From positions 18,476,001-18,540,000 of the forward strand of contig OZ024747.1 of assembly GCA_964016885.1 (NCBI GenBank): a DNA stretch of 64,000 nt, in the 5' to 3' direction. A program made the position numbers and the translations under genes. The notes under the pieces are model-generated. The model saw only the letters and a list, made by a program, of their open reading frames with translations. It was not told the DNA's origin and searched no databases. Below are positions 3,812 to 44,465 of the stretch, in pieces. Every line of letters begins with the position of its first letter. The first letter of the stretch is position 1. The stretch comes from Eledone cirrhosa (taxonomy: Eukaryota).

Positions 3812-4339
3812 AGATTTAGAATTTATGTTGGTTGTATACCAACACCTCAGTATGCAGGCTGGAGCACTCGACGAAGTGCGCAGGTTGGTTTGGTTACTCC
3901 GGAGTAGTGTAAAATAAAGTTAAATAAAAGTCAAATGATTAAAATTTGGCTTCGTTTATTACTGCTATATATATTTCAGTGACAGCCATCTTTGGCTGTG
4001 ACCTCTTCAGGCAGTTTGAATTAGTATGGTATAGACAAGTACATATGTTGTTTAGGTGTATGATATTGTCAATACTCTGATATGCCCAGTTCCTTGTTGG
4101 GTTGTTAATTCACTGGGGAACTCATATGACTCCAGTTCCCCAGTGAATTAACAACCCAACAAGGAACTGGGCATATCAGAGTATTGACAATATCATACAC
4201 CTAAACAATATATGTACTTGTCTATACCATACTAATTCAAACTGCCTGAAGAGGTCACAGCCAAAGATGGCTGTCACTGAAATATATATAGCAGTAATAA
4301 ACGAAGCCAAATTTTAATCATTTGACTTTTATTTAACTT

Positions 4340-4346
<7 letters not shown>
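3812..4346. mobile_element. Fold-back HHR element, family B: 213-bp inverted arms in (TA)n
   Basis: Arms 3910-4122 and 4134-4346 with an 11-nt loop, unique extension 3812-3909, (TA)n on both sides. Confidence 0.9.
4241..4295 (+). ncRNA. Type I hammerhead ribozyme, family B (mirror copy 3961-4015, -)
   Basis: actgc-CTGAAGA-[ggtcacagcc aaagat ggctgtcact]-GAAA-tatata-TA-gcagt, followed immediately by AATAAA. Confidence 0.88.
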
Positions 4347-5665: not shown

Positions 5666-5707
<42 letters not shown>

Positions 5708-6992
5708 GTAGAACACTAGAGGGAATATCCGTAGTACATACCGATGGTGAACTAACTGTTGTGGAACTACTTATATATATACAATATGATTTGTACATTT
5801 GCTTGGTAACAAGGGAAGAGACAATCAGATAGAGAAACTCATACACACTCATATGTAGTTGTTGAGGATTCTGATCTTGTCTTATTTTCGTTTTATTTTC
5901 GTTTTAATTCAGGATTAGTATATGAAGGACCACGTTCTCCACTATGTACATTGTGTTTTTTTAAAGACTGTAGGTTATGAGTTGGTGAATATTCAACGTA
6001 TATTTCTAGCAGACTTAGTACTAGCGAAGATATTCCCTCGTTAGCTCTTATTTGATAGCTCCGACGGTATCCAACAAAATGTCTTCACAAACATATTTAA
6101 CGTAAAAAGGAAAATAAATAAATTTGCATCTGCTATTGAGAAACAAATTTAGAAATCTAGTTTCTTTCTCCATTAAGAAACATCTGGTCAGAGTTAGTTA
6201 GATTGAGAAAATAAACTATATTTTTACTTTCCATTTTTTTGTCTTTTTCTCCCCAAACAAAGGCATCTTATATTTTAGAGGAAACGCTACTTTCAACAAT
6301 TTAGTTTATTTCTGTAAGAAATTTCGTTGAAATTGTTGATTTGTCTTTATTGGTGAACATTAATTACACCGAAGTTGCGTGTTTTCGCTACATATGTTTT
6401 ACATTGATGTTAATAACATAGAACATGTTAACAGTTTATATCACAGTCTAGTATCAGAGATAACTAAACGTCCGCCAAGAACGAAACCAAAGGAACATTA
6501 CTCACTGTCCACTGGCATTCCACATGTTTTTGCTGTAAGTCATGAAACATACATACACAGACCCGTAACTCGTAATAGAGTCGTAGGGGTGCTGTAGTGA
6601 CATACAGCGTCTCTTGGGTATTTTAAACATGACTGAGTTCATCCCTTCTCCAGGTTTAAATACACACAATTTCTTCCAGAGAGAAAGACAGTGGGAGAGA
6701 GAGGAAGAGAGAGAGGGAGGGAGAGGGAGAGAGAGAGCAGACGATTACTAGACTCGTACTTTTTATGTATTTAATGAATAAAAAAAGGTGGGCGAAGATA
6801 ACGAAAAAACGGATGAAACAGAGGGCAGTCGCTGCTCATTAGTCGACCGCTGAAGGTCCGTTGTTTCGATGCTTTAAAGTCGATACAACTGGCCCCAGGG
6901 TACATGGGACCGTAACAAATGGACACAAGACAGGATGATTGGTCTTTCGACTATTTACAAATAAGATAGAATGTCTTTATTACTGCATATGT

Positions 6993-9695: not shown

Positions 9696-10402
9696 TATTG
9701 GGATAGGAAAAATATCTGCATTTCAATATTACTCAATGTAAAATGTAATACATGAAAAGTCGGAAAACATTAATAATATACATTTGTAATATATCAAATC
9801 AAAATTACATTATTAAATCTTATTCTTATTTTGTTTCTTGTAAATAATTTTTTTCAAAATATCAATTCAAATCTTTTGTGAATAGGCATCATATGTTGTC
9901 ATTTATCTATGGTTTAAATTTCATATACATAGAAGGGAAAACATTTCAGCGGGGATTTGTGCCTCCGGGGAACGCTAATAGGGGGTTTAACCCCCATTAG
10001 GGTGTCTTAATATTATTGAAATTTGTTGAAATTTTGTGAATAGGCATCATATGTTGGCATTTACCTATGGTTTAAATTTCATATAAATCGAAATGAAAAA
10101 ACTTTCAGCGGGGGTTTGTGCCTCAGGGAACCCTTTGATTACAATGAAATATACTTATCCAAGTACCCTGTGCCAATGTAGTTTCAGAATATATATGGTT
10201 ATGGGGATCTATCTCCAAAACCATAGGAGTAGTTCGTGAACAAACAAACAGACAGGAACACAACTTTATATATATATATATATATATAGTAATAATAATA
10301 AATTTGAAGACTAAAATCCAAAGAGGGCTCGATAAGGATAAATATATATCAAATATATAAGAAAATCTGTTATTTTAATAAATATATATATATATATATA
10401 TA

Positions 10403-14448: not shown

Positions 14449-14503
<55 letters not shown>

Positions 14504-14504
14504 A

Positions 14505-15140
14505 AGTAGTTCCTGTCTGTTTGTTTGTTTGTTTGTTTGTTCACGAACTCCTATGGTTTTGGAGATAGACCCCCGTAACCATATATATTCTGAAACTACA
14601 TTTCCCAGGGTACTTGGATAAGAATATTTAATTTTAATCAAGGGGTTCCTCGGGGGCACGAACCCCCGGTGAAAGTTTTTTCCCTTCCATTTATATGAAA
14701 TTTAAACCATAGGTAAATGAGTAAGATATGATGCCTATTTACAAAATTTCAGCAAAATTCAATAATATTGAGACACCCTTATGGGGGTTAAACGCCCTAT
14801 AGTGAAAATTTGGGAAGCCCATAACTTGAGTATTGGAACTTTGAATTTCTAATTTGAAAATAATGCTTTACACAAAAATGAAATGATCAAGTTTTGAATT
14901 GATATTTTGAAAGAAATTATTCAAAAGAAACAAAATAAGAATAAGATTTAATAATGTAATTTTGATTTGATATATTACAAAAAATAATGTTTTCCAATTT
15001 TTCATGCATTACATTTTACATTGAGTAATATTGAAATGCAGATATTTTCTCCATAAATTATATCACTGATTTAAAATCAATCATCATTTTCCTACAAAAA
15101 AAAATTTGTGAAACACAGTAAGGCGCGGGTAATTCGGCTA

Positions 15141-15143
<3 letters not shown>
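14505..15143 (-). mobile_element. Helentron/Helitron-like non-autonomous element
   Basis: Begins TACTAGCCGAATTACCCGCGC on the minus strand and ends acaaacagacaggaactacttta(TA)n. Homologous to 16764-18030 and 9710-10268. Confidence 0.6.
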
Positions 15144-15196
<53 letters not shown>

Positions 15197-16434: not shown

Positions 16435-16763
16435 ACATTTACATATATATTAGCACATATTTAACTGATATATACATATACATGAACGGATACAGATGTT
16501 GAGATAAACGAGAAGAGCCATAACCTCTTAGAGAACACTTAATGGTGCAATGTTGACTCATTATAACGAACTCTAATTCTTGGGTTCTGAAAAACTTAAC
16601 TTCCGGTCGTCGTAGAAAAAACAAAACAAAGGTATGACCTACCACTTATTACTTTCATATCATATTTCTAAGAGACATGCAATCCCCCCCCCCCTCACGC
16701 ACATGCACACACGGGAGCCAAATTACTTAATTCAAGTACCGACATTTTACAAAATAATATATA

Positions 16764-18030
16764 TACTAGCCGAATTACCCGCGCCTTGCTGCGTTTCACA
16801 ACCTTTTTTTGTAAGAAAATGATGATTGATTTTAAATATCATTTATGGAGAAAAACTCTGCATTTCAATATTACTCAATGTAAAATGTAATGCATAGAAA
16901 ATTGGAAAACATTATTTTTGGTGGATTGGCAGTATCGGTAGAGGGTCGGATGCCATACTTTGACGCATAGAATTACGGTTCTTGCCATTCTGAGTTCAAA
17001 TCCCGCCGAGGTTAACTTTGCCTTTCATCCTCACGGGGTCGATGAAATAAAGTACCAGTAATGCACTGGCCTTGTGCCAAAAGTAGAAACAATTATTTTT
17101 GTAATATATCAAATCAAAATTACATTATTAAATCTTATTCTTATTTTGTTTCTTGTAAATAACTTTTTTCAAAATATAAATTTTAAACTTTTGTGAATAG
17201 GCATCATAAGTTGTCATTTACCTATGGTTTATGGTTTAAATTTTATATAAATCGAAGGGAATACATTTTCAGCGGGGGTTTGTGCCTCCGGGGAACCCTA
17301 ATGGGGGTTAAACCTCCTATTAGGGTGTCTTAATATTATTGAAATTTGCTGAAATTTTGTGAATAAGCATCATACTTTGTCATTTACCGATGGTTTAAAT
17401 TTCATGTAAAACGAAGGGAAAACATTTTCAGCGGGGGTTTCTGCCTGCAGCAAACCCTAATAGGGGTTGAACCCCCATTAGGGTGTCTTAATATTATTGA
17501 AATTTGCTGAAATTTTGTGAATAAGCATCATACTTTGTCATTTACCGATGGTTTAAATTTCATGTAAAACGAAGGGAAAACATTTTCAGCGGGGGTTTCT
17601 GCCTGCAGCAAACCCTAATAGGGGTTGAACCCCCATTAGGGTGTCTTAATATTATTGAAATTTGCTGAAATTTTGTGAATAAGCATCATACTTTGTCATT
17701 TACCGATGGTTTAAATTTCATGTAAAACGAAGGGAAAACATTTTCAGCGGGGGTTTCTGCCTGCAGCAAACCCTAATAGGGGTTGAACCCCCATTAGGGT
17801 GTCTTAATATTATTGAAATTTGCTGAAATTTTGTCAATAGGCAGGTGTTTTTGTCAATAGCAGGTGTTTTCAGCGGGCATTTTGTACCCCCGGGGAACCC
17901 TTTGATTAAAATGAAATATACTTATCCAAGTATCCTGGGCAATGTAGTTTCAGAATACATATGGTTATGGGTGTGTATCTCCAAAACCATAGGTGTAGTT
18001 CGTGAACAAACAGACAGGAATACAACTTTA
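16764..18030 (+). mobile_element. Helentron/Helitron-like non-autonomous element with internal 158-bp tandem repeat and nested SINE
   Basis: TACTAGCCGAATTACCCGCGC start. The internal repeat recurs at 17341, 17499, 17657 and 17815, each unit with hairpin accctaataggggttgaacccccattagggt. A SINE is inserted at 16920-17096. Confidence 0.65.
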
Positions 18031-18046
18031 TATATATATATATATA

Positions 18047-19029
18047 AGTGGTAACACAACATTTAGTTCACTATACCGAGAACAATCGTTTCACCTTAGC
18101 GGATCTTCAGCTCGTACCGGTCATAGTTATACGGAACAGGAATAACAACTGTATGAACGCGCATGCGCAGAAACGGTCACTTCACCCAAGTGATACAAAG
18201 CCACAGGCGAAAGGTGTAAGGGAGATAACTACAAAAGTCCGGAAAAGATGTTCGAGTTGATAAGAAAATTAGAATGTTGTTGTTATTCAATCAGGAGCTT
18301 TGTAGTTATGTAAGAGGTGTTTCCAGACATGTGGACAACGTGAGAAGATTTCATTTCTTGAATTTAGGCAATCGCTATTGCGTAATCTCCTTAGAATATT
18401 TATCCTTTCTTCAATACACAGTCCACAAGACGGATTGCCCGTAGCGTATGGCTTGGACTTAGTGATGGCTTTCCATTGAATGGAGTAGTCTATACCTGAG
18501 ACCTTGAGGGACCATACGTGGCTCACGAGTTTCGTGGATGATCATTTGTCCGGGTACCTAAAGGTCGACTGATGGTTCAGGAAGCGTTCCTTAAATCGAC
18601 CCTCCGCCATACCCACATAGGATTTGGCCTCCTGTGGTTGATTTGGTCGGTTGGAAGTGACCGCAGCTTCATAAACTACAGCGGGTGTGTTGCATTGCTG
18701 TTGAAGGGGACAAGCTTCAGGCTTTCGGCAAGAGCATCCTGGTGGGGTGCCGCTCTTAAGACTCTTAGGTAATGTGGGCCTTCGTATTCTTAGCGCAGGA
18801 GTACCCTAGTTTTACTCTGTCTGTTAAAGATGGAGCAGTATTTGTGAACAATGGGAAAGTATTTATATATTGCGTAATCTCCTTAGAATATATTTCTAAT
18901 ATATTCTAAGGAGATTACGCAATAACGTTTGCCTAAATTCAAGATATGAAATCTTCTCACGTTGTCCACATCTCTGGAAACACCTCTTGCATAACTACAA
19001 AGCTCCGGATTGAATAACAACAAAATTCT
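18047..19029 (-). mobile_element. Penelope-like element remnant (GIY-YIG C-terminus, HHR-bearing tail, inverted 5' segment)
   Basis: 18287-18526 encodes HVWSLK...IQWKAI..SKPY....CGLCIEERINI...LNSRNEIFSRCPH..KHLL. Near 18790-18870 it reads YKYFPIVHKYCSIFNR and, after a frameshift, VKLGYSCAKN. Both are typical of PLE proteins. 18900-19029 is an inverted copy of about 18271-18400. The 3' end abuts (TA)n. Confidence 0.85.
18077..18114 (-). ncRNA. Minimal hammerhead ribozyme in the PLE 3' tail
   Basis: cgag-CTGAAGA-[tcc gctaa ggt]-GAAA-cgattg-TT-ctcg. A related copy at about 59885-59922 has palindromic stem III caattg but a mutated core. Confidence 0.75.
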
Positions 19030-20810
19030 GCCGAGGTTAACTTTGCCTTTCATCCTTACGGGGTCGATAAAATAAAGTACCAGTAATGCACTGGAGTAAA
19101 TGCTGACCTTGTGCCAAAAGTAGAAACAATTATTACACTGACGGCACTAATTTCGTTACTGCATTAGGGCTTGATGAACACAACTACAAGGATATGGTCC
19201 GAACTTGGAAGAGCCGAACTCCCATTGTCATCTCCCCCATCTCTCTCGCCCTCCCCATCTCTCTGTATGGTGAGCAAATGGGGTCCCATGTGCTGGCCAC
19301 ATACGAAGGTATTTTTCACAATTTCCACCAATCAAATTCCACCCACAAGTCATTAATCAACCCGAGGTAAAGTTATGGTAGAGGAGCCTTTGTCCATGGC
19401 GTCGCACAAAGAATCGAACTCCAAAGGAGTCCCTTGTTTACGATGTAAAATGTTTAACTATACAGCCATGCTTCCCTTTCCCGTGGCCCACCAAACTATC
19501 TAGGTTGGTTTTTGTTCCGGACTTGTTACAATGTAATTACTTCTATGGTAGTTCATTTGATCACTTAGTACACCTCTTTGGTAGATTAACACATTTAATA
19601 CACTTAAACCCCTTTAACATTATTGCTACCTTGTATTAAACTATATAAACTGTCTATAAATAAATATAGTGTCAATATAACACTTGGCTCAAGCAGATTC
19701 CAAAGAAAAAAGTAATAAAGAAATACGTAAGGAAAGAGAAAATGAAATCTTTGTAGACATTAAGTAAATGTCACGGCGAAGCAGCCTGCATTGATTCCTT
19801 CTAAATCCCAATGGGAGTTTAGAAGTGGTTCTCTTGATAAATATAGCGTTTATATTCTCATATTTATTAATCTTTTTCGTATCAGCATTTACATAACACA
19901 TATTTTAATTCTCCCTCAAGTATATCAAATAAACGTGTCAAATGTAAGATTTGCGAAAAATATCAACATTGCGTGCACGTATGTGTGTATTTATCATCGC
20001 CTTTTAACGTCTATTTTCCTTGCTTGCACATATTTCACACGAATGTTCGTGTTTATGTTTCAGTGAGTGTGTATACATGTATGTTGTTCGTGTTGCTATT
20101 TAGTCCCAACTCACCGCTGACTCGGCTATGATCAAAGAGATTCAAGTTGCGACTATCCTTATCTCATTCTGTACATTTAGAATTATATTGGTTAATGTAT
20201 TCTTCCTTTTTATAGACAAGAGTGTGATTTTAGGGAATTTTGTGGGTATTTCAAGCAATTCCAGACGCTGCCAACCTCTAAAACCTCAAACGGGGAGTAC
20301 TATGAAAACAAGTGCCCCAAAAGGGGGAGAAATGAGGCAAAATGGGGAGATTTTACATAATTGTTTCTATTTTTGGCACAAGGCCAGCGATTACCCAAGT
20401 GTATTACTGGTGATTTATTTTATCGACCCCGTAAGGATGAAAGGCAAAGTTAACCTCGGCGGTATTTGAACTCAGACCATAAAGGGCCATAACTCTTTGC
20501 TGCAAAGCATGGCGTCAGACCCTCTACCGATATTGCCAATCCACCGGGGAGATTTTACATAATGAAAGCTATACCCATTTTTACGTCCGACGGGGAGAAT
20601 TGACAGGTCTGCAATTCGTAAGGTTTTGAGTTCGATGCCCTTTTTTTTTAAACAGTAGAGAAATTTATATATATATATATATATAATCTGCCAATAAATG
20701 TGAAGACTAAAATCCCAAGACGGCTCGATAAGGATAAATATATATCAGATATATAGAAGATCCCGTTAAGGGTGAAAGCAGTGATTCTTTGCTTAAACTT
20801 TAATCTGTTA

Positions 20811-20861: not shown

Positions 20862-21337
20862 AAAGTTATATTTAAATTGTTGGGTTACAACTAGTAAATA
20901 TTTATAACTGATATAAAAGCACTCAACAAGTATTTGGAGTATATTTACGATATTAAATAAATGGAAACTATATTTATAAAACCATATCTATTTCATTATA
21001 TATATTTCAGGGATATCATATTAACAATATGTTATGCCTTCTTCAGACAAAATACAATATAGACAGTTTTATAGATAAATAGATTTGACATACCGTTCAA
21101 CATCGACTTGTATTTGAAAAAGTTGATTTGGCAGTCAAATCAAAAAATGGTCTGCCAAATCAACTTTTTCAAATACAAGTCGATGTTGAACGGTATGTCA
21201 AATCTATTTATCTATAAAACTGTCTATATTGTATTTTGTCTGAAGAAGGCATAACATATTGTTAATATGATATCCCTGAAATATATATAATGAAATAGAT
21301 ATGGTTTTATAAATATAGTTTCCATTTATTTAATATC

Positions 21338-21340
<3 letters not shown>
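20860..21340. mobile_element. Fold-back HHR element family E (189-bp arms)
   Basis: Arms 20946-21134 and 21152-21340, unique extension 20860-20945, (TA)n on both sides. Related copy 57236-57588, fragment about 3450-3528. Confidence 0.9.
21232..21297 (+). ncRNA. Type I hammerhead ribozyme, family E (mirror 20989-21054, -)
   Basis: tattttgt-CTGAAGA-[aggcataacatatt gtt aatatgatatccct]-GAAA-tatata-TA-atgaaata. Confidence 0.8.
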
Positions 21341-21402
<62 letters not shown>

Positions 21403-21406
<4 letters not shown>

Positions 21407-21976
21407 ATTATTTGGGTTTGTTGGTTCACCACTGGATAGAACTGGTCATCCTGTGTGGTCAGCCATGATGTAATGTTATGGAAAGCACTCAACGTAATGC
21501 AACCACCTCTCTTCGTTTGTGTAGTTGGTGGTGCGAGTACGGAGTTAATTATTACAAAATAACAGGAGGCATGTTCTGGTATAAATCCTTGAAAGGTTTA
21601 TTTTACTATGATCATTTCAATGACTGGGTTCAGTATGAATCCGGTGACATCATCAGGTATTTCAAAATATAACGAAGGAATATATCAGATAAAAATCTTT
21701 GGTGTTTAAATCAGAGACAAGGGGCGGCCGGTATTTTAGCGACTAGTATCTACGTCAACCGTCTTGAGGGTGGTCTACGTAGATACAAGTCGCTAAAATA
21801 CTGGCCACCCTCTTGATTTAAACACCAAAGATTTTTATCTGATATATTTTTTCGTTATATTTTGAATTACCTGATGATGTCACCGGATTCATACTGAACC
21901 CAGTCATTGAAATGATCATAGTAAAATATACCTTTCAAGGATTTACACCAGAACATGCCTCCTGTTATTTTGTAAT
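21403..21976. mobile_element. Fold-back HHR element family F (about 200-bp arms)
   Basis: Arms 21551-21755 and 21777-21976, slightly diverged. Unique extension 21403-21550. (TA)n flanks. Confidence 0.88.
21867..21924 (+). ncRNA. Type I hammerhead ribozyme, family F (mirror 21603-21659, -)
   Basis: ttac-CTGATGA-[tgtcaccggattca tac tgaacccagtcatt]-GAAA-tgatca-TA-gtaa. Stem III is palindromic; stem II is imperfect. Confidence 0.7.
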
Positions 21977-24900
21977 ATATATACATATACATATATATGC
22001 ATACATACATACATGAGTGTATTCTCTCTCTCTATATATATACATATTTAAGCCCCGGCTAGCCGAGTTAATATATATATGTATGTTGATACTTATTCTA
22101 TCAAATTAAACAAGAAAATCAAACCCCCTGCGGGATTTGAAATCAGAATATATGATGTAATATTAAATTCCATTAGTTGTTTAACCAGCTAGTCTATAGT
22201 TTCTATCACAACCTCCCTCCCTCCACCGCAAAGTTTCCTTCTAAATATTTAATACTTCTCTGTAACAAGGGACGTAGAGAAATCGGTTAGTACACGACCA
22301 TTAGAAAGACAAAATGTCATTTTTTTGAAATTTGTATCTAGTATAGACCGAAACAAAAGACCATTTTTTAAATTGATGTGTAGTAGAGACCGAGGCAAAA
22401 GATCAATTTTTACTTCATATCTATCTAGTAGACGACAGACAAAAAATATCAATTCTTACATGTGAATTATAGAACAAATTGATCTGACATATATAGATAC
22501 TTATTTTGTTGAGAATGTAGTCAAATCCAATGTGATTATGAACTTAAAATTTAAAATGACATAATACAAACTAGCACAGCTCCAATTTCGCCCTTAATGT
22601 ATTTCTCAAACAAGTAGTGGTTTGGAAGAATTAGTAGAGCCGTGGATAAAATGCTATTGTGATATTTGTTCTGGATCTTTACATTCTGAGTTCAAATTCC
22701 ATCGAGGTCAACTTTGTTTTTCATGCTTCCGGTGTCGATAAAATAAAGTACCACTCAAAAACCTGTGTTTGATTCAATCAACTTTACCCTTTCCGCAAAT
22801 TTGCTTATCTTGTTCCTAGGTTAGAAATCAATATTTCATTTCTCATCGGTAGGAAATTGGTAGAACGCTAATTCTCTTCATTTACATTATTCATATCTTT
22901 GAGCGGGCCTTTGATTAGCATTAAAACAATCCATTTCTCTTACGTTAGATGTATATGGCTGCAAAGAAAAATAAGATTAATTTCGGGCATATGAAGTCAA
23001 TTGAATAGCAGAAATAGTTCAAATTTCGTTTACGTCAGTTTTTTTTTATTATTTAGCCAAGGGCGGAAGGACAGTTCCCATGACGATTTACACAGCCTCC
23101 TCGATATAGGAAGGGTGGAAAGTATCCTCAAACCGGAGAAGTGGTTTAAGTGCTTGTAATAGAGCGAACTATGTTAAAATTATACAAGAACTATGCGGTG
23201 TTGTTAAATAAAGTGACGTATTAAACATACAATCGAAGTAGGCCACAGCCAGATTTGAATCCAGAATGCAAAGATACGGAAAAACTAACACAAAGCATCG
23301 TGTCTGACAGACATTCCAACAAGTCCACCAATCGCCCAATGCCTCGGACTAAGAATTTGTTTTAACGACCCTGAAAGGATGAAAGATGCTTCTGTCTCTC
23401 TCGTTCTCCTCCCGTCTTCCCCTTTTATCTCGTCGATATAAACATGTTACAGACATATACTTGAGTCTCGTATATTAGACACTCGTCCACTAAATATTGC
23501 TGGCATTACTATGAGTCAGATTTCCATGTAAAGACTGCAAGGAACTTATACTATTAAAATTATTTCCTCTTTTCCTTCCGTTGATCCACTTAAGATATAA
23601 AACGTTGTCTCTTATCCCATCCTTTAATACAACAACAACAAAACATATTTCTTTATGTGAAAGTTGGATTTGTTGCACATGAGGAAGGAAAATAATTCAT
23701 TATGAAGATAAATAAAATACGAGATAAAAATATATAATAAAAATAGGTTTATCTTCTTCGCCCACTTATTCCTGGGAGGGGCCGAGTCTTCAAACCCTCC
23801 TTCTAGCGAGTCCTGTCAGAATCAACCGTTTCCAATTGATCCGTCTGAATTCCACTCTAATAATTATATTTTCTCTCCAAACTATCAAAACACATATCTA
23901 TGCGCTACAATTTATGGGAATGTTGTTTATCGCACATCGAAGTTGTCTGACCATTTTAAAGTGCAAAGAGCTAAACTAATTACTACAACTAAATTATCCA
24001 AATCCCGCCCCCAAATTCAGAAATGCTTCCACCGTCCCCGGTAAGTATATATGTATGTCTCTATGCGCACGTGGAGAGAGAGAGAGCTAAGATACCATAT
24101 AAACAGCTGTGAAGTCAACAATACGCTGCCAAGTCACTTGATTCTCAAATGACCCAGTCAGTTTAGTCGAACGTACGTACCGCAGTATACGACAGCCTCT
24201 CTATGGAGAGAACAGGCATTCTGCTATATTGATACAGGATGATTCTTTAGTTTTTAGTGTTCAATACAACTGCCCAACTTTGCGGAGAAGCTGTTTCGGT
24301 GGTTTAATTGAGAGTTTTTTTGTTCTGCATTATATAAATTGTTATAACGTTTAAAACAACGCAGTAAAAACAATATAATACAAATAAAACTAAGAATAAT
24401 GCACAAGTCACTGTAAAACTAAGAATAATGCATATATCACAATGATATATGCCTGGACAATGTGTGAGAACTCTCTCCGATGTGCAGAGCTGAAGGTGTA
24501 TGTTGCCTGGTGGTTCCTGGGGACAAAATAGAGGATAACGAGAAAGACATGCTGAAACAGCCATTCAAACTTGCGCGGCTCACTTTTGCAGATGGCCTAC
24601 TCCATCCCGATAGCAGCGAATAGGGAAGGTGTTTCGGAGAGCCAGAACGACAGATGTCTCCACCGTTATAGATTCAAAGTCTATAGATTTAAGAACTTCT
24701 CGGGGCCCCTCTTCAATTATCTCAGTGGCATCTGTGTAGAATCTGTCTTTGCTCTTGGTTAGGAACTGCTGCAATCGATATTGATTCTGCCGACCTATCA
24801 TCAAAGACATTTCAGTCATGACCATTATCTTTTTTCTTCTCAGGCTTAGCATATCTAAGACAACACTCTTCAATGTATCCTTCCATTTATTTTTTAAATA

Positions 24901-27978: not shown

Positions 27979-28040
27979 ATATATATATATATATATATAT
28001 AATCCAAAAAAAAACAAAAAAAAAAATATATATATATATA

Positions 28041-29910
28041 TTGGAATAAATGCTCTGAAATAGCGATATATATGTGAATATAGACATAGAATATTCGAAA
28101 ATATTCTGTATGTTTATAATAAACATTTTGAAGACCTAATCGCTATAGAATAGAATACGTCACGTATTACAATTAGATTCTCGATAAAAGCAAGGGAAGT
28201 AATCTACGCGTTTCATTCTTGTTAGAAATCATCAGGACTACATATCCAGTGCTTTTATCGAGAATGACACAGCTAGAGACTTATAGAATACTTAGCTGTG
28301 TACAGGAACTGGTTTGAAAGAGCGGTTGCCGGTCCGGCAGAAATTAGAAATTGGAATAAATGCTCTGAAATAGCGATATATATGTGAATATAGACATAGA
28401 ATATTCGAAAATATTCTGTATGTTTATAATAAACATTTTGAAGACCTAATCGCTATAGAATAGAATACGTCACGTATTACAATTAGATTCTCGATAAAAG
28501 CAAGGGAAGTAATCTACGCGTTTCATTCTTGTTAGAAATCATCAGGACTACATATCCAGTGCTTTTATCGAGAATGACACAGCTAGAGACTTATAGAATA
28601 CTTAGCTGTGTACAGGAACTGGTTTGAAAGAGCGGTTGCCGGTCCGGCAGAAATTAGAAATTGGAATAAATGCTCTGAAATAGCGATATATATGTGAATA
28701 TAGACATAGAATATTCGAAAATATTCTGTATGTTTATAATAAACATTTTGAAGACCTAATCGCTATAGAATAGAATACGTCACGTATTACAATTAGATTC
28801 TCGATAAAAGCAAGGGAAGTAATCTACGCGTTTCATTCTTGTTAGAAATCATCAGGACTACATATCCAGTGCTTTTATCGAGAATGACACAGCTAGAGAC
28901 TTATAGAATACTTAGCTGTGTACAGGAACTGGTTTGAAAGAGCGGTTGCCGGTCCGGCAGAAATTAGAAATTGGAATAAATGCTCTGAAATAGCGATATA
29001 TATGTGAATATAGACATAGAATATTCGAAAATATTCTGTATGTTTATAATAAACATTTTGAAGACCTAATCGCTATAGAATAGAATAAGTCTCTAGCTGT
29101 GTCATTCTCGATAAAAGCACTGGATATGTAGTCCTGATGATTTCTAACAAGAATGAAACGCGTAGATTACTTCCCTTGCTTTTATCGAGAATCTAATTGT
29201 AATACGTGACGTATTCTATTCTATAGCGATTAGGTCTTCAAAATGTTTATTATAAACATACAGAATATTTTCGAATATTCTATGTCTATATTCACATATA
29301 TATCGCTATTTCAGAGCATTTATTCCAATTTCTAATTTCTGCCGGACCGGCAACCGCTCTTTCAAACCAGTTCCTGTACACAGCTAAGTATTCTATAAGT
29401 CTCTAGCTGTGTCATTCTCGATAAAAGCACTGGATATGTAGTCCTGATGATTTCTAACAAGAATGAAACGCGTAGATTACTTCCCTTGCTTTTATCGAGA
29501 ATCTAATTGTAATACGTGACGTATTCTATTCTATAGCGATTAGGTCTTCAAAATGTTTATTATAAACATACAGAATATTTTCGAATATTCTATGTCTATA
29601 TTCACATATATATCGCTATTTCAGAGCATTTATTCCAATTTCTAATTTCTGCCGGACCGGCAACCGCTCTTTCAAACCAGTTCCTGTACACAGCTAAGTA
29701 TTCTATAAGTCTCTAGCTGTGTCATTCTCGATAAAAGCACTGGATATGTAGTCCTGATGATTTCTAACAAGAATGAAACGCGTAGATTACTTCCCTTGCT
29801 TTTATCGAGAATCTAATTGTAATACGTGACGTATTCTATTCTATAGCGATTAGGTCTTCAAAATGTTTATTATAAACATACAGAATATTTTCGAATATTC
29901 TATGTCTATA
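28041..29910. mobile_element. Retrozyme-like 310-bp tandem array with a central inversion
   Basis: Units start at 28041, 28351, 28661 and 28971 (partial). Orientation flips at 29085-29087 and reverse units continue with period 310 to about 29910. Both ends lie in (TA)n. One HHR per unit. Confidence 0.93.
29104..29192 (+). ncRNA. Type I hammerhead ribozyme of the 310-bp monomer, with extended stem I
   Basis: gtagtc-CTGATGA-[tttct aaca agaat]-GAAA-cgcg-TA-gattac (core 29128-29170, GUA site). A distal 16-bp helix, 29104-29119 with 29177-29192, lies beyond an internal loop. Copies at 29438 and 29748 (+) and at 28199, 28509 and 28819 (-). Confidence 0.92.
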
Positions 29911-29912
29911 TT

Positions 29913-29967
<55 letters not shown>

Positions 29968-30847: not shown

Positions 30848-31390
30848 AGAAATAAATAGGTAAGAAAATAATTGTTTCTACTTTAGGCACAAGGCCAGCA
30901 ATTACCCAGTGCATTACTGGTACTTTATTTTATCGACCCCGTAAGGATGAAAGGCAAAGTCAACCTCGGCGGGATTTAGGTAAGAAAATAATATAGGCGA
31001 AAGATGAGTTGGTATGCAGACAAAACTTTATGTATTATTTTTAATAATAATAATAATAGTAATAAACGAAAGATATATACTTTATACCATCTCTATTTAT
31101 TTTATTGTATACTAGCACAATGGCCCGGCGTTACTCGGGATTTGCTCTAGGGTTCTTATATATTTGTTATATATTTATCCTTATCGAGCCTCGTGAAATA
31201 ATACGTTTGTTTATATTTTGTTATTGTGTATGCAAAAATATCTGTACACGAATATATAATTATATATATATTAAAATAACAGATTCAAGTTTAAGCAAAG
31301 AATCGCTGCTTTCACCCTTAACGGGATCTTCTGAAACTGAAAAAATAAATCTGTGAACGCAGAAGTAAATATTTCGAAAAACGTTACACA

Positions 31391-40949: not shown

Positions 40950-41313
40950 GTAGGAGGTGAGTTTTATTGTAGCACAATAAAGCAATGCAAATATCGGATA
41001 AGTAGCACTCCACATTTTATAGGACTGGGGTATAAATAAAATAAGATCAAAAGATGGTTAAAAGAGTTCCAAGTATTTTATTATGCGCATTTCAAAAACA
41101 AATATCATTATGGGATGATATTTGCGTTCTCATCAGATAAAAATCAAGATATGTTGATTTAAAACTTCACTGCTCACAAAGTGTTTTTTAAGCTTCATAT
41201 CATGTTTCCCTATTTTATCTGATGAGAACGAAAATATCATCCCATGATGATATTTGTTTTTGAAATGCGCATAATAAAATACTTGGAATTCTTTTAACCA
41301 TCTTTTGATCTTA
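40950..41313. mobile_element. Fold-back HHR element family A with two hammerheads
   Basis: HHRs at 41074-41142 (-) and 41211-41281 (+): tattttat-CTGATGA-stem II-GAAA-tgcgca-TA-ataaaata. Unique extension 40950-41040. Confidence 0.88.
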
Positions 41314-41728
41314 TATATATATATATACTCCATCTTTTGATCATATATATATATATATATAGATATAGATAGGTAAATATACACGGGTGTGTATGATTGT
41401 GTATAGAAGATTATATTAATAAGAGGAATTCCAACTTTGTCTGATTTACTCGTTTTATTTACAATCCTTTAAAATATATATAATGGTATTATAATGAAAT
41501 AGTATGATAGAATATATATATATACAAAAAGTTATGAAACGAAAGGAGCTGTGTGGTTACTAAAAACACGGTTTAGGTTGGTGGTTAGCACGGAACAGGA
41601 GGAGAAAGGAAGAAAGGAGTTTCCATCGTCAGCTGTAAATGTTTCTCGAACCGATGTTTCGGCGATGCGTGCGTGTGTGCGAGTGTATGTGTGCGTGTCT
41701 GTATATATATATACATACATATACTCAC

Positions 41729-43615: not shown

Positions 43616-43818
43616 GTAAGTTCTTGCAAGAGACTTTTTTTAATAATTTTTTTTTTTATAAATGTATATATATGTATATATAGATGATTTGTAAAGAATG
43701 AAACAGTTCTAGTCCTGTAGAATCTCATCTATATTAAAACTTTTATACTCTGCAATGTATTGAGTACCTTACTTACTGTGGTTACCTCAGACTCAACCCG
43801 GAATAACGTATATACATA

Positions 43819-43852
<34 letters not shown>

Positions 43853-43879
43853 TGTATGTATGTAGTATGTATGTATGTA

Positions 43880-44182
43880 TAAAATAAGTAAGTCAAATAT
43901 GTAAAATTTGGCTTCGTTTATTATAAATTATAAATTTACTGCTATACATATTTCGGTGACAGCCATCATTGGCTGTGACCTCTTCAGGCAGTCCGAATTG
44001 GTGTGGAAAAGACAGGTATACATGTGTACCTGTCTTTGTATACATGTATACCTGTCTTTTCCACACCAATTCGAACTGCCTGAAGAGGTCACAGCCAATG
44101 ATGGCTGTCACCGAAATTTATATAGAAGTAAATTTATAATTTATAATAAACGAAGCCAGATTTTACATATTTGACTTACTTA

Positions 44183-44187
<5 letters not shown>
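43880..44187. mobile_element. Fold-back HHR element, family B relative, in the integrin intron
   Basis: Arms about 43880-44025 and 44042-44187. HHRs at 43938-43992 (-) and 44075-44129 (+), stem II ggtcacagcca atga tggctgtcacc. Confidence 0.88.
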
Positions 44188-44248
<61 letters not shown>

Positions 44249-44465
44249 AGTGATGACATTGAAATATACATACATGCATACTTTTTTTTTATTAGTTTCA
44301 GTCATGTGACTGCGCCCATATGCTGGGGTACCACCTGGGAAGGGATTTAATCGACATACCGACCCTCGTATTTACTTTTTCAAGTTTCTTATATATTTTA
44401 TCGATCTTTTTTTATCGGGACATAAAAAGACACAAACTTAAACACGGACGCCGCATAAATACACT

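Follow-up and report, generated by a model that had tools for sequence, protein, structure and literature searches.

The insertion at 18047-19029 is very probably a dead-on-arrival copy of a high-copy retrotransposon from the Hydra clade of Penelope-like elements (PLEs). It lies in a 64-kb stretch of AT-rich, (TA)n-dense eukaryotic DNA, here called the window, in which 356 TA runs were counted over the whole length; features are collected in Table 1. The clade, its targeting of TA, the hammerhead ribozyme, inverted 5' copies, junction palindromes and short repeats derived from PLEs are already known, and what is new is the family. No description of it was found in the literature searched, but these searches were made without Repbase, Dfam and most subscription papers, and the family may already be deposited. 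An abundant family is thereby added to a little-studied clade; no new system is revealed, and the importance of the locus is modest.

Table 1. The insertion, its surroundings and its two solo relatives, with positions in the window.
Feature	Position	Strand	Basis or remark
Left host repeat with internal 158-bp array	16757..18028	+	Repeat comparison in the window
(TA)9 target, also the TA-rich end of the left repeat	18029..18046	.	3' end of element adjoins
Main arm: Hydra-clade PLE copy truncated at its 5' side, final ~820 nt of the element	18047..18867	-	Homology to relatives; family reads cover the main arm in 4 of 4 runs examined
Tail of 34 nt, from predicted cut to 3' end	18047..18080	-	Within the window, common only to the two solos
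3' UTR, pLTR-type terminal region	18047..18286	-	Lies 3' of the stop at 18287-18289
Type I hammerhead motif (putative)	18070..18127	-	Core from 18110; predicted cut after 18081; descriptor and Hydra-table layout
Linker (CxCX5C and fourth conserved Cys) and GIY-YIG endonuclease (VVY/YVG, R, H, E, N; CxxC, CxH)	18290..18766	-	Sequence and relatives
Remnants of the ORF 5' of the linker, frame-shifted in two pieces (18870-18814, about 18821-18768)	18768..18870	-	tblastn of relatives
Junction hairpin, 27-nt arms, 3-nt loop	18868..18924	.	Perfect self-complementarity
Inverted arm: final 36 codons with the stop, then ~16 nt from the start of the 3' UTR	18901..19029	+	Rest of UTR and hammerhead missing
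SINE-like repeat, 3' part, abundant	19023..19138	+	'SINE' is a label from copy number and structure, with no database match
Solo relative: leader of its own (~25 nt), then the final ~80 nt of the element; mutated hammerhead core	59853..59953	+	TA on both sides
Second solo: leader and tail similar to those of the first; deletion of the hammerhead core	5703..5772 (start approximate)	+	TA on both sides

Endonuclease domain and clade membership

The minus strand over 18290-18805 translates as CSCRKPEACP...VVY...YVG...CGLCIEE...LNSRNE...CPH, with one in-frame stop (TGA, 18542-18544) and an endonuclease domain that reaches up to the terminal stop at 18287-18289. With this protein as query, phmmer retrieved 4,967 cluster representatives (E no higher than 0.001). 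Among the best 150 of these, the CxCX5C linker, which the window protein carries as CSCRKPEAC, is present in 105, CxxC..E in 146, and CxH after LN in 120, while two cysteines between the tyrosine motifs are found in none of the 123 relatives that could be tested and are absent from the window protein too. The same 150 include eight relatives of at least 590 aa. All eight have YRDD upstream of the matched domain, seven have DK[TS] and three RW[KR] (the remainder are N-truncated or variant), the signature of a reverse transcriptase (RT) that would precede the C-terminal endonuclease in the same protein. A regular expression for the full motif gave one real match and none in 50 shuffles, which adds little, the pattern having been written after inspection of the sequence.

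The fold of one relative, P0005, is GIY-YIG according to its predicted structure (86-sequence alignment, pLDDT 93), which best matches I-TevI (Z 9.1, rmsd 2.4, 90 residues aligned) and also T4 EndoII (Z 7.5) and UvrC (Z 6.2). In Foldseek the top six ranks were all GIY-YIG proteins, none of them reaching E 0.001. With PF01541, 25 of the 86 relatives were matched (E up to 0.5), whereas the window protein was not. Pfam assigned no family to the window pieces or to the read-through protein, nor to nine relatives at E 0.01, which left the RT without a name there; the same was true of searches of PDB sequences with both alignments, which gave no match. A word-index search among longer proteins produced 205 candidates, none significant, and a cluster look-up of ten relatives returned no protein names.

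In an alignment of the 150 best phmmer matches with 20 cluster members, a fourth cysteine after CxCX5C is conserved in 161 of 164 aligned rows, and Hydra-type endonuclease domains may bind zinc at two complete sites, CCCC and CCCH. Passages on Hydra endonucleases in the defining study name only three linker cysteines (PMC8557442). In relative P0001, the stretches of conserved CxCX5CX5C and CxxC...CxH fall at residues 24-38 and 127-159.

That study defines the endonuclease of the clade, for which its table gives 27 families, by a C-terminal GIY-YIG domain, a CxCX5C linker in place of CX2-5CxxC, the lack of CCHH, and the pair CxxC and CxH (Craig et al. 2021, PMC8557442). Every one of these features is found in the window protein, with CxxC and CxH placed around E/N. 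The CCHH finger inside the GIY-YIG core that marks Neptune, Nematis and Penelope/Poseidon is absent; so are the marks of Naiad and Chlamys, namely an N-terminal endonuclease and the lack of a canonical hammerhead, since here the endonuclease is C-terminal and a hammerhead motif is present. Placement in the clade by RT would rest on relatives at 34-51% identity, because the window has no RT sequence. The locus further resembles Hydra elements in its predicted 3'-UTR hammerhead and in its insertion into (TA)n, reported in PMC8557442 for nearly all Hydra families. All three copies of the family in the window end in TA runs, one of them decayed, and boundaries of TA runs make up ~1.1% of window positions. 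TA-flanked 3' ends are not displayed by the 14 relative loci, most of whose contigs stop before reaching them; terminal direct repeats are present in three of them (L004, L005, L008).

A first-pass annotation, made from the letters alone, had described the locus as a Penelope-like remnant with a PLE-type C-terminus (CxLC..E...LNxRxE...CxH), inserted with a possible preference for TA repeats. The C-terminus is read on the minus strand as CGLCIEE, LNSRNE and CPH; the Penelope-like identity can be narrowed to the Hydra clade, the long relatives of the protein joining an RT to a C-terminal endonuclease; and the preference for TA agrees with what is known of nearly all Hydra families (PMC8557442).

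The nearest named family is Hydra-1_Obim (PMC8557442), with ~40-45% identity to the window domain in a count by eye. It has, again by eye, the minority residues CSCR, CNT, SNR, ER, LNSR and CPH in common with the window protein, and the two may possibly sit on one sub-branch. At this level of identity, and with an unrelated 3' UTR and a different hammerhead of shorter stem II, the window family is to be kept separate; unlike Hydra-1_Obim as presented there, it is also abundant and has solo derivatives.

The 3' region, abundance and decay of the copy

The core of the predicted hammerhead starts at 18110 on the minus strand, 176 nt after the terminal stop, and its fold would comprise an extended stem I, a stem II of 2 bp closed by U/U, and a near-palindromic stem III. 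This layout is that of the entries in the Hydra hammerhead table, where most rows have a short, U/U-closed stem II (PMC8557442). Taken singly the motif is weak. Its folding z-scores (-0.27 and 0.52) are no stabler than those of shuffles, and a hammerhead model built from outside relatives, namely those 6 of 14 metagenome loci with a complete motif, gives it 12.5 bits at E 0.88. Rfam at its gathering threshold had no match in the whole window, and by E-value it gave one chance match and no hammerhead on 18040-18300; this type of PLE is overlooked by standard Pfam and Rfam scans. By comparison, the window contains 23 cores that fit a strict type I descriptor, where 30 local shuffles average 0.23, and 18 of the 19 matches of the model coincide with hammerheads so defined. 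In relatives L004, L005 and L008 the hammerhead lies 180-200 nt past the endonuclease. We read the 18110 motif as a putative type I hammerhead near the 3' end of the element. The earlier suggestion of a minimal ribozyme about 170 nt past the stop holds on the descriptor, albeit with a weak model score, and so does that of a 3' end in (TA)n, the element abutting (TA)9.

As in the metazoan PLE hammerheads described by Cervera & de la Pena (2014, PMC4209133), the predicted topology is type I with an extra base after A9, and stem III is palindromic in a way suited to activation as a dimer. At 18110 this stem is one base short of a perfect palindrome, which is found in the solo copy at 59.9 kb and in >99% of the family depth in runs X1 and X2, as activation through dimers would lead one to expect (PMC4209133). 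That paper also describes hammerheads paired on opposite strands at distances of 100-700 bp, and these have their counterpart in the palindromes of the window. Unlike the minimal consensus given in that paper, with a long stem II and G10.1-C11.1, stem II at 18110 has 2 bp and is closed by U/U.

Four public sequencing runs were examined at a likeness threshold of 85%. Pieces mostly 85-99% identical to the element cover it in all four, including, at low depth, one with a second organism label; the listed matching runs included no RNA run. Summed depth, which is not a copy number, reaches 520,692 in the last bin in X1, against 31,949-156,426 in the endonuclease region and 7,810-39,147 farther upstream. 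The family is abundant and biased towards its 3' end. In run X7, 18245 is the point at which 3,766 reads depart from the element into one common, different sequence, which suggests that just the final 200 nt are common to the element and an abundant subfamily or derivative.

Where this copy has the in-frame TGA, 42,744 of 42,920 depth in X1 shows a sense codon, and >99% does so in both X1 and X2; in the alignment described above the column of this codon holds R, K or A, never Cys. On these two grounds the stop is a private nonsense change and not selenocysteine. Selenoproteins are known among Naiad PLEs (PMC8557442), and the catalytic-type residues of the window protein are intact, so that a TGA read as selenocysteine, or an ORF retained as a stand-alone nuclease gene, could be imagined. 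We give these two readings together practically no credence: the first is refuted at the level of the family by the sense codon, with the TGA private to this copy, and in the second the upstream frameshifts sever the frame from any start. Other copies of the family show indel differences near 18767 and 18817 in the pieces from sequencing runs. With no RT, two frameshifts and one stop, this copy is not a possible autonomous partner of other elements, whatever holds for its family.

Outside the insertion, the repeat on the left, which we tentatively take from its terminal motifs to be Helentron/DINE-like, has relatives at 9709-10292 and 14482-15150 with varying numbers of 158-bp units. The TA-rich terminus is shared by its copies at 10243-10292 and 14482-14560; this 3' end is the insertion target here, and at 10293 another repeat adjoins it. 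A search with seven relatives (tblastn) found no convincing PLE coding remnant elsewhere in the window, the one match being weak (E 0.26), and ARAGORN found no tRNA in the window.

The head-to-head 5' junction

The inverted copy of the ORF end and the small hairpin that the first-pass annotation had placed at the 5' junction are both present. In inverted orientation, 18901-19029 is identical to 18271-18399 at 122 of 129 positions (5.4% different). The two hairpin arms (18868-18894 and 18898-18924) are complementary at 27 of 27 positions, with a folding z of -12.9, and 24 nt of each correspond to ORF positions 18376-18399. The 27 nt with which the inverted arm begins, and not the broken main-arm end, supply the sequence of the hairpin. 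We saw no target-site duplication around the insertion.

Comparable structures have been reported. In Penelope insertions of Adineta vaga, which have an inverted pLTR and a tail, junction palindromes were ascribed to self-priming and occur with microhomology junctions and deletions, and mobilisation in trans by pLTR sequences is described (Arkhipova et al. 2013, PMC3846280). The listing for Penelope-13_HM, a Hydra family, includes an inverted 5'-truncated copy (PMC8557442), and purified Poseidon protein is described as cleaving and extending both target strands, with two start sites by which the tail is delimited (PMC11167929). The present locus resembles the Adineta insertions in its palindrome at a head-to-head junction, its microhomology and its probable deletion, as well as in mobilisation in trans, which is likely for its solo relatives. 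It is unlike them in that the inverted piece begins inside the ORF end, its outer end is lost and a target-site duplication is not seen.

We propose that the RT-GIY-YIG protein of an intact master nicked the (TA)n run and that reverse transcription was primed there at the tail of the RNA. The first cDNA would have ended after about 820 nt, and a second one, of opposite polarity, 112 nt into the ORF end. The shorter cDNA would then have folded back and copied 27 nt of itself, giving the hairpin, and joined the broken end of the first to yield a head-to-head insertion. The outer part of the inverted arm would have been removed by a later deletion, probably through a short match between this arm and the SINE-like repeat. 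If so, the locus records a fold-back junction, which is one unexplained step in the integration of PLEs.

It is rather unlikely that the arms are instead separate insertions of one family, or were brought together by later inversion or recombination, and not by a single integration event. Such an origin would accommodate the 5.4% difference between the arms, the lack of a 3' end proper to the inverted arm, and the abundance of the family, but not readily the exact meeting of the arms at a fold-back hairpin derived from the first 27 nt of one of them; moreover, head-to-head order is the rule in the other palindromes of the window, whose arms are 79-97% identical. The differences between the arms (four nonsynonymous, two synonymous, one in the UTR or at the junction) and the change private to each with respect to the family majority (18293; 18972) fit a neutral decay that would amount to some 3% in each arm.

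The same seven differences, at least one of them private to each side, would not be produced by a duplication artefact of assembly. No listed contig from the sequencing runs covers the full stretch and spans the junction, which is known from the assembly alone, but junctions with inverted copies were judged real in the account of other PLEs in PMC3846280, and we regard an artefactual origin of the inverted arm and hairpin as very improbable.

At its outer end, the inverted arm overlaps the SINE-like fragment by a short, imperfect microhomology (19023-19029). A deletion at this junction is likely because both the rest of the inverted arm and the right-hand TA flank are absent. Other SINE-like copies begin at about the same point, however, so the junction need not be a deletion and the order of events may differ from that proposed. 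The copies at 19023, 30177, 30977, 38413 and 47400 are 5'-truncated at nearly one position, suggesting a preferred stop in reverse transcription.

Solo relatives and other hammerhead repeats of the window

The two short solos noted by the first-pass annotation, at 59852-59953 and about 5706-5772, are indeed present and share the tail of the element. A query of the 35-nt tail scores 58 and 36 on them (59.9 kb and 5.7 kb, respectively) and at most 30 elsewhere in the window, with shuffled maxima of 24-30. Their leader is common to both copies, is absent from the UTR of the main element, and pairs with the end of the tail. The self-complementary ends, of ~12 nt, include one compensated pair between the copies, of which there are only two. 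Where the core is deleted in the 5.7-kb solo, a short stretch of the neighbouring tail stands in inverted orientation.

The solos are most likely non-autonomous derivatives that kept the hammerhead-tail end and were moved in trans by this Hydra-clade family; they suggest that the last ~80 nt suffice for such mobilisation. They resemble non-LTR retrozymes, described as short hammerhead repeats homologous to PLE termini (bioRxiv 10.64898/2026.07.22.740005), but differ from retrozyme tandem arrays, whose units carry an intact type I hammerhead: both are monomers of ~100 nt with a mutated, dead core or a deleted one, and with self-complementary ends. A stronger version, which we put forward only tentatively and consider rather less likely to be right than wrong, is that the family has spawned a dedicated ~100-nt parasite, built of a tail-pairing leader, the hammerhead and the tail, amplified in trans to ~10x the abundance of its parent and always in (TA)n. 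If true, the parasite would form a sequence-linked autonomous/non-autonomous pair within the Hydra clade and a minimal cis signal for a TA-specific GIY-YIG/RT, and a set of such PLE systems could help to build the dense TA microsatellites and palindromes of the genome.

Beyond the solos, the first-pass annotation had seen in this element the class of autonomous partner that mobilises the hammerhead palindromes and arrays of the window. This stands for the two ~100-nt solos, which share the hammerhead region and tail with the element; the palindromes and the 310-bp arrays share no sequence with it beyond the core. A comparison of tail and UTR with the short families found nothing in common above shuffled scores, and the hammerheads are different. 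The best matches elsewhere in the window scored 30 for the tail and 34-36 for longer queries, against shuffled maxima of 24-34, and the upstream part of the UTR had no other match in the window.

That these palindromes and arrays are mobilised by this family, or by the Hydra clade in general, is doubtful to us, although several features speak for it. The other families likewise end in (TA)n, on one arm and 38-54 nt past the predicted cut; a short stem II closed by U/U, as in Hydra hammerheads, occurs in three of them (the 31431 and 42109 families and the 310-bp array); and non-LTR or tandem retrozymes have been argued to derive from PLEs (bioRxiv 10.64898/2026.07.22.740005, whose supplements may list related families). 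Against it stand the unshared tail and UTR, the long stems II and different stem III palindromes of four families, and the hammerhead model from Hydra-type loci, which scores long-stem families equally to short-stem ones and does not separate clades. Naiads that target TA in cephalopods provide an alternative source (PMC8557442), and the account of Adineta reports no cross-mobilisation between types of PLE (PMC3846280). The architecture common to the element and the palindromes, that is, a hammerhead, a 3' end in (TA)n tens of nt later, and head-to-head arms, is general to PLEs. It was probably PLEs as a class that made the palindromes and arrays of the window; no link connects them to this particular Hydra-clade family.

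A TA run of at least 10 nt is found at one end only in 10 of the 12 fold-back palindromes, at both ends in one and at neither in one, a geometry resembling that of PLEs. Fold-back palindromes at 3910-4346, 20940-21346, 21550-21977, 41026-41332, 43813-44249 and 57233-57501 have a hammerhead in one or both arms and mostly a TA run at one end with an extra tail at the other, and several contain small central duplications or hairpins. A hammerhead-like motif at 31333, 31533 (minus strand) and 31888 (plus strand) has the core change U4 to A in all three copies together with a longer, stable stem III, and may be a variant core or the product of a dead master. The 310-bp tandem arrays at 28040-29923, which is head-to-head, and 63140-64000 have units 99-100% identical, each with an intact Hydra-like hammerhead, and look like young arrays of the retrozyme type. 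A (TA)-type microsatellite of ~2.9 kb (60240-63149) adjoins the latter array.
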